A stretch of 64,000 nt of DNA from Escherichia coli (GTDB lineage: Bacteria; Pseudomonadota; Gammaproteobacteria; Enterobacterales; Enterobacteriaceae): NCBI RefSeq assembly GCF_036507355.1, contig NZ_AP027877.1. One strand, 5' to 3'. The notes under the pieces were generated by a model, which saw only the letters and a program-made list of their open reading frames with translations, was not told where the DNA came from and did not search any database. Positions 28,425-31,721 of this stretch are shown piece after piece. Made by a program: the position numbers and the translations under genes. Within the stretch, counting starts at the first letter, position 1. Each line of letters begins with the position of its first letter.

Positions 28425-28666
28425 TACTTACGAATTTTGAGTACAAAATTTCTACACTACCTCAAAATAATTGCACAATTTGCTAAAAAAATATGAATGA
28501 CATGCTGTTTTATTGTTCATATAAATCTTAAAAGCAGAAATTTATCTGTTCCCCCCTTTAAAAATTCGGTGAATACCCTTACTTATTGGTATACTGAAGT
28601 TGCTTCAGATAAAAACGCATTGAACCTCGAATAACGTTGTCTAGTAACACGAATTAGGGGGCCATG

Positions 28667-28921
28667 ATGGAAAAAAATAATGAAGTCATTCAGACTCATC
28701 CGCTCGTAGGGTGGGACATCAGCACCGTTGATAGCTATGATGCGCTGATGTTGCGTTTGCACTACCAGACCCCAAATAAGTCCGAGCAGGAAGGGACTGA
28801 AGTTGGTCAGACGCTCTGGTTAACCACTGATGTTGCCAGACAATTTATTTCGATATTAGAAGCAGGAATCGCCAAAATTGAATCCGGTGATTTCCAGGTA
28901 AACGAGTATCGGCGTCATTAA
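28667..28921 (+). CDS. bssS: Biofilm regulator BssS
   Basis: ORF track 28664..28921, MEKNNEVIQTHPLVGWDISTVDSYDALMLRLHYQ. Confidence 0.9.
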   Translation: MEKNNEVIQTHPLVGWDISTVDSYDALMLRLHYQTPNKSEQEGTEVGQTLWLTTDVARQFISILEAGIAKIESGDFQVNEYRRH

Positions 28922-29035
28922 CATGACATGACCATCCACCCAAAAGGCACCTCACCGGTGCCTTTACCATTTCTGGGTTGTATATCTGCATTCAGTTAAT
29001 TACTCTGCTTAAACCATGAGAGCAGAGAGAAAAAA

Positions 29036-30154
29036 ATGAAATACGATCTCATCATTATTGGCAGCGGTTCCGTAGGCGCTGCCGCCGGGTATTATGCAAC
29101 CCGCGCCGGTTTAAACGTGCTAATGACCGACGCCCATATGCCACCGCATCAACACGGCAGCCACCACGGCGATACGCGATTAATTCGCCATGCTTATGGT
29201 GAAGGCGAAAAGTATGTCCCACTGATCCTCCGCGCGCAAACGCTGTGGGATGAGCTCTCCCGCCACAACGAAGATGATCCCATTTTTGTACGCTCTGGTG
29301 TCATTAACCTCGGCCCGGCTGACTCCGCATTTCTCGCCAACGTCGCCCACAGCGCCGAACAGTGGCAACTCAACGTTGAAAAGCTCGATGCGCAAGGGAT
29401 TATGGCCCGCTGGCCAGAAATACGCGTCCCGGACAACTACATCGGCTTATTTGAGACTGATTCCGGTTTTTTGCGCAGCGAACTGGCGATTAAAACCTGG
29501 ATCCAACTGGCGAAGGAAGCGGGCTGTGCGCAACTGTTCAACTGCCCGGTCACCGCAATTCGTCATGAGGATGATGGCGTAACTATTGAAACGGCTGATG
29601 GTGAGTATCAAGCGAAAAAAGCGATTGTCTGCGCGGGAACATGGGTAAAAGACCTGCTCCCGGAGCTGCCTGTCCAGCCCGTACGTAAAGTATTTGCCTG
29701 GTATCAGGCCGATGGCCGCTATAGCGTGAAGAATAAATTCCCGGCGTTTACCGGTGAACTGCCCAATGGCGATCAATATTATGGTTTTCCGGCAGAAAAC
29801 GACGCGTTGAAGATTGGCAAACATAACGGAGGCCAGGTTATCCATTCAGCGGATGAACGTGTTCCGTTTGCGGAAGTGGCCAGTGATGGGTCAGAAGCCT
29901 TCCCGTTCTTGCGCAATGTATTGCCGGGTATCGGTTGCTGCCTGTACGGCGCTGCCTGCACCTATGATAATTCGCCTGACGAAGATTTTATTATCGATAC
30001 CCTACCCGGCCACGATAATACACTGCTCATTACCGGCCTGAGTGGGCACGGTTTTAAATTTGCGTCAGTTTTAGGGGAAATAGCTGCCGATTTTGCGCAA
30101 GACAAAAAAAGCGATTTTGATTTGACGCCATTCAGGCTTTCCCGCTTCCAATAA
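29036..30154 (+). CDS. solA: N-methyl-L-tryptophan oxidase
   Basis: ORF track 372 aa, GSGSVG FAD-binding motif. Confidence 0.94.
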
Positions 30155-30174
30155 TCATCATTACGGCCTCCAGA

Positions 30175-30315
30175 ATGAGGCCGTTTTTACAGGAGTATTT
30201 AATGCGTCGGCTGTTGCACTATCTCATCAATAATATTCGCGAGCATCTGATGCTTTATCTTTTTCTCTGGGGATTGTTGGCAATTATGGATCTGATCTAT
30301 GTGTTTTATTTTTAG
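30175..30315 (+). CDS. yceO: Small membrane protein, 46 aa
   Basis: Not in the ORF track; hand translation [46 protein letters not shown]. Confidence 0.7.
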
Positions 30316-30575
30316 TTTTCCGCACTGACATAAACTGACAAATATTTAATCTCCCTTTCATTTAGCGTGAAAAATTGAATGAGATTATTCCTGTTTCTAC
30401 AGCACTCACCAGACATCTCTGATGCTGAACCCACTAAACTTATGAAGATTCTTTCATTATTAATTCAAAATTATTGAAATAAAAATAAATATCATTCAAT
30501 TTGTTATTTTTGTGTTGCAATTCATTCTCCGACACGCCATTTTCTTTCTCTCGCAAATTCGTTTTGGATGCACTT

Positions 30576-31142
30576 ATGTCATTCACAAATACCCCTGAAC
30601 GCTATGGTGTTATATCTGCGGCCTTCCATTGGCTAAGCGCAATTATTGTCTACGGCATGTTTGCTTTAGGTCTGTGGATGGTCACGCTCAGTTATTACGA
30701 TGGCTGGTATCACAAAGCACCCGAACTGCATAAAAGCATCGGTATTTTGTTAATGATGGGGCTGGTTATTCGCGTTCTGTGGCGTGTCATATCTCCACCG
30801 CCGGGTCCGCTGCCGAGTTATTCGCCCATGACTCGTCTTGCCGCAAAAGCTGGACATCTCGCATTGTACCTATTGCTGTTCGCCATCGGCATCAGCGGTT
30901 ATCTCATATCAACTGCCGATGGTAAACCGATCAGCGTTTTTGGCTGGTTTGACGTCCCCGCGACCCTCGCCGACGCTGGCGCACAGGCTGACTTTGCCGG
31001 TGCCCTGCATTTTTGGCTCGCGTGGAGCGTCGTAGTACTGTCCGTTATGCACGGATTTATGGCCCTGAAACATCATTTCATCGATAAAGACGACACTCTG
31101 AAGCGCATGCTGGGAAAGTCGTCATCTGACTATGGAGTATAA
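30576..31142 (+). CDS. yceJ: Cytochrome b561-family protein
   Basis: Internal start MSFTNTPERYGVISAAFHWLSA within ORF track 30501..31142; 188 aa. Confidence 0.88.
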   Translation: MSFTNTPERYGVISAAFHWLSAIIVYGMFALGLWMVTLSYYDGWYHKAPELHKSIGILLMMGLVIRVLWRVISPPPGPLPSYSPMTRLAAKAGHLALYLLLFAIGISGYLISTADGKPISVFGWFDVPATLADAGAQADFAGALHFWLAWSVVVLSVMHGFMALKHHFIDKDDTLKRMLGKSSSDYGV

Positions 31143-31145
31143 AAA

Positions 31146-31721
31146 ATGAAAAAAAGCCTGCTTGGTTTAACCTTCGCGTCCCTGATGTTCTCTGCCGGTT
31201 CAGCGGTTGCCGCCGATTACAAAATTGACAAAGAAGGTCAGCACGCCTTTGTTAACTTCCGCATCCAGCATCTTGGCTATAGCTGGTTATATGGCACCTT
31301 TAAAGATTTCGACGGTACTTTTACCTTTGATGAAAAAAATCCAGCTGCCGATAAAGTGAATGTGACAATTAACACCACCAGCGTCGATACTAACCACGCC
31401 GAACGCGATAAACATCTTCGCAGTGCGGATTTTCTCAATACCGCAAAATATCCACAGGCAACATTCACCTCCACCAGCGTGAAGAAAGACGGTGACGAAC
31501 TGGATATTACCGGCGATCTGACGCTGAATGGCGTAACCAAACCCGTCACGCTGGAAGCGAAATTAATTGGTCAGGGCGACGACCCATGGGGTGGTAAACG
31601 TGCAGGCTTCGAGGCCGAAGGCAAAATTAAGCTCAAGGACTTCAATATCAAGACAGATTTAGGTCCAGCTTCTCAGGAAGTGGATCTGATTATTTCAGTG
31701 GAAGGCGTACAGCAGAAGTAA
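31146..31721 (+). CDS. yceI: Periplasmic YceI-family protein
   Basis: ORF track 191 aa with signal peptide. Confidence 0.92.

Follow-up and report, generated by a model that had tools for sequence, protein, structure and literature searches.

The small protein gene yceO behind solA in Escherichia coli: a probable start at the second ATG and expression by read-through of the solA terminator

Background

The small protein gene yceO of Escherichia coli lies directly behind solA, the gene for N-methyl-L-tryptophan oxidase, and its annotated K-12 start falls within the hairpin that follows the solA reading frame. This arrangement raises the question of whether the start of yceO is truly interlocked with the solA terminator, as an earlier note on this DNA had proposed, or whether the gene begins further downstream and merely appears to overlap the hairpin. 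Public resources already record the gene, its operon and the termination site, and the locus reveals no new kind of element; it is the choice of start codon and the route by which the gene is transcribed that require an answer. The reading that we consider likely is that of the known solA-yceO operon, with a yceO of 37 residues that begins at the second of two in-frame ATG codons and is fed by read-through of the terminator.

We examined the locus within a stretch of 64,000 nucleotides of an E. coli chromosome (RefSeq assembly GCF_036507355.1, contig NZ_AP027877.1), which is called the window throughout and to which all coordinates refer unless K-12 is named. Published K-12 coordinates were converted by the relation window = 30315-(K12-1119307). 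For comparison, 56 solA loci were fetched from different species, and yceO was located in 53 distinct loci of the Enterobacteriaceae.

Results

Identity of the gene and its neighbours

The genes bssS (28664-28921), solA (29036-30154), yceO, yceJ (30576-31142) and yceI (31146-31721) all lie on the plus strand of the window. The solA reading frame encodes 372 residues, matches the Pfam family DAO (1.7e-51), is annotated in RefSeq as N-methyl-L-tryptophan oxidase and closes with a TAA codon at 30152-30154. The next entry of interest in the ORF listing is an ATG frame of 46 residues at 30175-30315 (+), identical in sequence to K-12 b1058, yceO. The earlier note had named the gene correctly, and its 46-codon frame beginning within the GC hairpin after solA is confirmed; only the coordinate needs correction, as position 30165, given there as the start, corresponds to the stem's first G and the ATG of the frame is at 30175.

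We take the domain family DUF2770 to be Pfam PF10968 and b1058 to be UniProt P64442. The 46-residue frame matches DUF2770 with 79.1 bits (E = 2.4e-22), and since the cut-off of the model is 25 bits, yceO is no chance ORF; neither the 46-residue nor the 37-residue form matched an NCBIfam model. The possibility that yceO is a spurious ORF is contradicted by the dN/dS values given below together with a western blot published in PMC12529367.

A genuine terminator behind solA

The stem-loop behind solA (30163-30184, +) begins 8 nt past the solA stop codon. It consists of an 8-bp stem (ACGGCCUC/GAGGCCGU), in which six of the pairs are G-C, and a 6-nt loop, CAGAAU, with an RNAfold energy of about -14.5 kcal/mol; its GC core, GGCCTC/CAGAAT/GAGGCC, occupies 30165-30182. 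A run of five T follows on the same strand (30184-30188), and the published K-12 transcription termination site (TTS) 1119433 maps to 30189, the base directly after this run. A hairpin of -9.9 kcal/mol or stronger is found at the same position in 51 of the 53 loci, and the solA stop codon lies 2-12 nt ahead of the hairpin base in 47 of them. The stem itself varies, with 35 distinct 5' arms and with compensatory changes, across genera, in four of the six consensus pairs. The earlier note had called this hairpin the solA terminator. The RNA 3' end at 30189 and the compensatory changes support that claim, and hairpin and U-run together are a genuine intrinsic terminator of solA.

A consensus terminator scan did not list the solA hairpin, because the maximal stem leaves only four T among the eight following bases; with a 7-bp stem instead, five of the next eight bases are T. 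Among the genera compared, the number of T in the eight-base tail varies between 0 and 7, and no good U-tract follows the stem-loop in Kluyvera and several others. The hairpin may therefore not act as a terminator everywhere, and in those genera the stem-loop may be an RNA-end or stability element more than a terminator. The same scan did not list a GC hairpin at 28943-28966, AAAAGGCACC-TCAC-CGGTGCCTTT, which lies after bssS and about 47 nt upstream of the solA transcription start and is presumably the bssS terminator. A dedicated terminator for yceO was also considered and was rejected, as none occurs within 150 nt downstream of the gene in almost all loci.

The spacer between yceO and yceJ (30316-30575) measures 252-269 nt, and mostly 259-263 nt, in 35 of the 38 loci having both genes. 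It contains several conserved blocks, for example TCAAAATTATTGAAATAAAAATAAATATCA, GTTGCAAT and CGCCATTTTC, and has regulatory potential. Nine nucleotides past the yceO stop codon stands the direct repeat ACTGACA-taa-ACTGACA (30324-30340), with a period of 10 nt, whose core, [CT]TGACA-N4-[CT]TGACA, is nearly invariant in 16 loci from many genera, one of which lacks yceO. This repeat could be the binding site of a regulator or a promoter element for yceJ-yceI.

Transcription past the terminator

Published SMRT-Cappable-seq data (PMC6131387) report a single transcription start site (TSS) for yceO-containing transcripts, that of solA at 29013 (+; K-12 1120609), 23 nt ahead of the solA ATG. The M9 row for this TSS gives its TTS as K-12 1119433 (window 30189). 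Of the reads that begin at the solA TSS in M9 (n=83), 46 stop at this TTS, four stop within 50 bp and five run on for at least 50 bp, with a median read-through extension of 160 bp, which ends past the yceO stop codon. The same study lists three operon variants from the single TSS, namely b1059 (solA) alone, b1059 with b1058 (solA-yceO, which matches the RegulonDB operon), and b1059 with b1058 and b1057 (solA-yceO-yceJ). These counts correspond to a terminator read-through of about 9-10%, and we conclude that YceO is made at a low level from read-through transcripts.

Other transcript data sets contribute little at this position. The supplementary tables of Cappable-seq hold no entry for the solA-yceO region, and Term-seq in LB or M63 called no 3' end at the hairpin (PMC7815308), which may be due to poor expression of solA and to a Rho-dependent region inside it. 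This region of Rho-dependent termination is placed at K-12 1120419 on the minus strand (PMC7815308, supplementary file 2), equivalent to window position ~29203 and thus some 170 nt inside solA, where it would cut the transcript reaching yceO still further. An internal promoter for yceO within solA was rejected: no promoter-like site was found on the plus strand near the solA 3' end, and the last 100 codons of solA contain no conserved block of synonymous sites.

The protein is correspondingly scarce. YceO-SPA expressed from the chromosome is visible by western blot at a level estimated to be at least 10,000-fold under that of plasmid expression (PMC12529367). A read-through of 9-10% fits this very low level, and YceO may be so rare because only about a tenth of the transcripts feed its gene.

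A small protein with a single transmembrane helix and very low expression might also be viewed as a type I toxin-like hydrophobic peptide, silenced by the terminator ahead of it, possibly with the help of an antisense RNA, and one promoter-like site on the minus strand (30499-30470) is indeed directed towards yceO. This single site, however, stands against 2.1 expected by chance, and an Rfam search of the locus gave one chance-level match only and no RNA family. The gene is moreover single-copy, with fixed synteny across the Enterobacteriaceae, and is under strong purifying selection, and the consulted passages of PMC12529367, which describe a 2 h overexpression from pBAD24 to obtain material for mass spectrometry, do not mention toxicity. 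We consider a toxin of this type extremely unlikely and retain low-level expression of an ordinary gene by terminator read-through.

Choice between two start codons

Two in-frame ATG codons are available to yceO. The first (ATG1, 30175-30177, +) is the annotated start of K-12 b1058 and is placed so that its A and T (30175-30176) lie in the hairpin loop and its G (30177) opens the 3' arm. The second (ATG2, 30202) lies 27 bases downstream, 14 nt past the U-run and outside the hairpin, and opens the conserved form of the gene (30202-30315, +), which encodes 37 residues, ends with TAG at 30313-30315 and corresponds to the RefSeq coding sequence in other strains and to Pfam DUF2770. The sequences ahead of the two codons differ markedly in their potential to bind the ribosome. 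A Shine-Dalgarno (SD) sequence, AGGAG (30191-30195, +), stands 6 nt ahead of ATG2 with a predicted anti-SD duplex of -6.9 kcal/mol, whereas the best pairing ahead of ATG1, where the bases read CCUCC, is -1.7 kcal/mol. SD-like tracts of -4 kcal/mol or stronger precede the conserved start in 30 of the 53 loci, compared with 4 of 159 control windows. The energies for opening the two starts in a global fold of 230 nt, 19.2 and 14.4 kcal/mol, are high and depend on long-range pairs, and so carry little weight here.

The protein family points the same way. The DUF2770 model is matched over its whole length (positions 1-36 of 36), but only by residues 10-45 of the 46-residue form; the nine extra N-terminal residues fall outside it. 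A family search of 1.84 billion representative proteins returned 37 representatives, most of which pair residue 10 of the query with their own residue 1. In each of the four non-K-12 E. coli records inspected, RefSeq/PGAP annotates a 37-residue 'YceO family protein' from ATG2. The extension, by comparison, reads as terminator: its tetrapeptide RPFL is encoded by AGG CCG TTT TTA, codons made up of the 3' arm of the stem and the T-run, and ATG1 exists only because the hairpin loop happens to read ...AAU and the arm after it opens with a G. The 46-residue K-12 reference form is best explained as a longest-ORF call.

The comparison across species separates the core of the gene from its extension. 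A core of 37-39 residues is present in all 53 loci, and the codon at its conserved start (the M10 position of the longer form) is ATG in 47, GTG in 5 and ATA in 1. Against other genera the dN/dS of the core is ~0.05-0.2, at saturated synonymous sites, and its variable columns are distributed over the three codon positions as 29/19/36, with third positions varying most; by these measures the YceO core is under strong purifying selection. In 18 of the 53 loci the nine codons ahead of the conserved start include an in-frame stop. Of seven Escherichia lineages, four, E. coli and E. albertii among them, retain ATG1 and three have TTG in its place; elsewhere the codon is GTG or absent. Within Escherichia, the ratio of nonsynonymous-or-nonsense to synonymous changes is 6:4 in the extension versus 5:23 in the core (Fisher p = 0.019), and no coding signature was found in the nine codons of the extension. 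Loss of frame in close relatives, which the earlier note had named as grounds for refutation, is thus real for the extension and does not hold for the gene itself, whose core is selected.

Among 5413 E. coli genomes, 4998 have exactly the same 59 nt between the solA stop and ATG2. E. coli S87 (locus L060), the only one of these records whose copy of the stretch is 90-95% identical, carries a T-to-A change at the equivalent of 30199-30201 that creates an in-frame TAA directly ahead of ATG2. This codon terminates the frame of ATG1, yet the 37-residue gene is annotated as intact.

With these data the longer form can be weighed. It would be the true or main product of E. coli if initiation took place in the hairpin loop on read-through RNA, with start and terminator interlocked. 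The K-12 reference annotation starts at ATG1, the A and U of this codon are predicted to be unpaired in the loop, and both codon and frame are retained in nearly all E. coli genomes and in E. albertii; such near-identity is, however, expected anyway from a selected terminator and a short divergence. The 46-residue protein also accumulates from a plasmid, being stable when expressed from pBAD24, with its N-terminal peptide detected (PMC12529367). As ATG1 was there placed behind the ribosome-binding site of the vector, this result is silent on the native start. Initiation at ATG1 in its own context would have to proceed without a Shine-Dalgarno sequence and with the opening of a hairpin of -14.5 kcal/mol, in an extension that is interrupted or absent outside Escherichia and, through the TTG codons and the S87 nonsense change, is not constant within the genus. 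In addition, ~85-90% of the RNAs that bear ATG1 stop at 30189, five codons into the frame and without a stop codon, so that efficient initiation there would be expected mostly to yield non-stop complexes. We regard the 46-residue form as a very unlikely main product.

A milder proposal is that both starts are used, with the 37-residue protein as the major form and a minor, Escherichia-specific isoform of 46 residues that has no separate function or a slight one. The two codons are in frame with no intervening stop in most Escherichia, bacteria commonly show some minor initiation at upstream in-frame codons, and the evidence is compatible with low-level use of ATG1. All of the points against the longer form apply here as well, though; no selection is visible on the nine extra residues, and the natural nonsense allele of S87 leaves the annotated 37-residue gene intact. 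An isoform of this kind seems to us quite unlikely.

The comparative evidence favours the 37-residue over the 46-residue form, and from sequence comparison ATG1 is very probably not the functional start and is probably fortuitous. The interlocking of start and terminator envisaged in the earlier note is not borne out: the conserved start preceded by a Shine-Dalgarno sequence is ATG2, beyond the U-run, and the restricted DUF2770 alignment, the RefSeq annotations, the upstream stops, the TTG and TAA variants and the extension devoid of coding signature all speak for it. The impression that gene and terminator overlap is best explained by a spurious longest-ORF ATG that happens to sit in the terminator loop.

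Several further variants of the gene were observed. E. coli ATCC 25922 (L059) has an in-frame deletion of 3 nt at the equivalent of ~30226-30231, by which one Asn is lost from the NN pair of the NNIREH motif, elsewhere nearly invariant, and the protein is shortened to 36 residues. In Salmonella enterica subsp. arizonae (L028, 3660-3770) an internal stop replaces a tryptophan codon after 22 residues and the copy is probably a pseudogene; the copy of S. enterica subsp. diarizonae is intact. Citrobacter sp. wls619 (L023, 1322-1324) has ATA at the conserved start, with in-frame ATG and TTG codons upstream, and may use another start or may have lost expression. A 492-nt low-coverage contig labelled Terrisporobacter petrolearius (L057) encodes part of a SolA protein with 98% identity to that of E. 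coli and most likely represents contamination of a Firmicutes assembly.

The YceO protein and its genomic partners

The hydrophobicity of YceO is concentrated in a C-terminal segment, with a Kyte-Doolittle maximum (19-residue window) of 2.15 at residues 25-43 of the 46-residue form. AlphaFold2 predicts the 37-residue form as one continuous helix over residues 2-36 (mean pLDDT 94), and both results support the single-helix hydrophobic peptide described in the earlier note. From the two predictions, the transmembrane segment would be encoded by 30247-30303 (+) and would include the invariant D30. The most conserved part of the protein in an alignment of 45 sequences is the motif NNIREH (residues 10-15 of the 37-residue form; codons 30229-30246, +), which is predicted to be cytoplasmic and to adjoin the membrane: N11 and R13 are invariant, like D30, and N10, E14 and H15 reach a conservation of at least 90%. 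Read from 30202, YceO has the features of its family: a length within 37-39 residues, one C-terminal hydrophobic helix and the NNIREH motif. By the positive-inside rule, the basic N-terminus (MRR..., then NNIREH) would face the cytoplasm. A sequence search of the PDB found no solved structure matching YceO. The gene has been listed among those for acid-stress small proteins (PMC8765455, PMC12997748).

Synteny offers some indication of what YceO may work with. In all 53 loci, as well as for four more distantly related homologues, yceO comes immediately after solA in the same orientation, and yceJ-yceI are absent from the available sequence downstream of yceO in 13 of the 53. Enterobacter sp. 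BIGb0383 (L035, 3620-3700) is the only full-length locus without yceO; it keeps the solA hairpin with a T-rich tail, which is followed immediately by the TGACA repeat and then by yceJ-yceI. Because yceO stays with solA when yceJ-yceI are absent, and because the Enterobacter locus has yceJ-yceI and no yceO, the gene is linked with solA and not with yceJ. A role of YceO as a small subunit of the cytochrome b561 YceJ was rejected for the same break in co-occurrence. Kluyvera intermedia (L048) and the distant homologues L064 and L066 lack yceJ-yceI and have a convergent trhO directly after yceO; in K. intermedia the stop codons of yceO and trhO share the same three bases (L048, 3775-3777).

As yceO, where present, follows solA in every lineage examined, with or without yceJ-yceI, the soluble flavoenzyme SolA could have in YceO a membrane partner of its own, acting as a tether or a regulator. 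The dosage of YceO might be set by a read-through that depends on solA translation, since in 47 of 53 loci the solA stop codon lies only 2-12 nt from the base of the hairpin, where a terminating ribosome could hinder folding of the stem. Taken jointly, these two ideas are unlikely to hold, and we offer them as suggestions from gene order and spacing.

Discussion

The published transcript data and the comparative analysis can be combined into a simple scheme. Transcription begins at the solA promoter (29013), and the stem-loop at 30163-30184 with its five U acts, on the published evidence, as an intrinsic terminator at which most M9 transcripts end, at 30189. About one transcript in ten runs on, by a median of 160 nt that covers all of yceO, and some reach yceJ. 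On this read-through RNA, ribosomes would be expected to initiate at 30202, 6 nt past AGGAG, and to produce the 37-residue protein. YceO itself would be a single helix with a basic cytoplasmic N-terminus and a C-terminal membrane span that carries the invariant aspartate; by analogy with better known proteins, it most likely belongs to the small membrane proteins of low abundance that work by binding a larger one.

The main value of these results lies in annotation, where the 46-residue entry for K-12 b1058 conflicts with the 37 residues given by RefSeq for the other strains inspected; the shorter start is already in RefSeq outside K-12. The choice matters for selecting the peptides of a targeted mass-spectrometry assay, for building expression constructs and for deleting or tagging yceO. 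The 11-residue peptide targeted in a published assay would be missing from the 37-residue protein. The locus also illustrates cleanly how a small-protein gene behind a terminator can be supplied by ~10% read-through alone.

Each part of this picture has a counterpart among known systems. The closest is the DUF2770 family itself: the gene in the window is identical to b1058, spans the full 36-position Pfam model and lies directly after solA, as in every relative, and the sole difference concerns the start, with 46 residues in the K-12 reference and 37 in RefSeq/PGAP and the family model.

The classic leaky terminator is T1 between rpsU and dnaG. In such operons a GC stem-loop and U-run stop most of the RNA, and the minority that passes carries the downstream gene, which is then expressed at a low ratio; the same is seen here, and the solA site is itself among the leaky intrinsic terminators listed in PMC6131387 (TTS 1119433). 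The solA site differs in that its read-through is not known to be regulated and that some genera have a poor U-tract there, where the stem-loop may be mainly an element of RNA 3' ends or stability.

Several small single-helix proteins of the E. coli inner membrane bind larger ones, such as AcrZ with AcrB, MgtS with MgtA, MgrB with PhoQ, and CydX. YceO resembles AcrZ, MgtS, MgrB and CydX in size, in its single transmembrane helix, in low abundance, in a motif adjacent to the membrane and in its link to stress; no sequence similarity to them was found, however, and we infer the functional class only. Finally, yceO follows the familiar pattern of starts misplaced by longest-ORF calling, with an in-frame ATG nine codons upstream of the conserved start that has neither a Shine-Dalgarno sequence nor conservation; unlike the usual case, the spurious ATG of yceO sits in the loop of a terminator.
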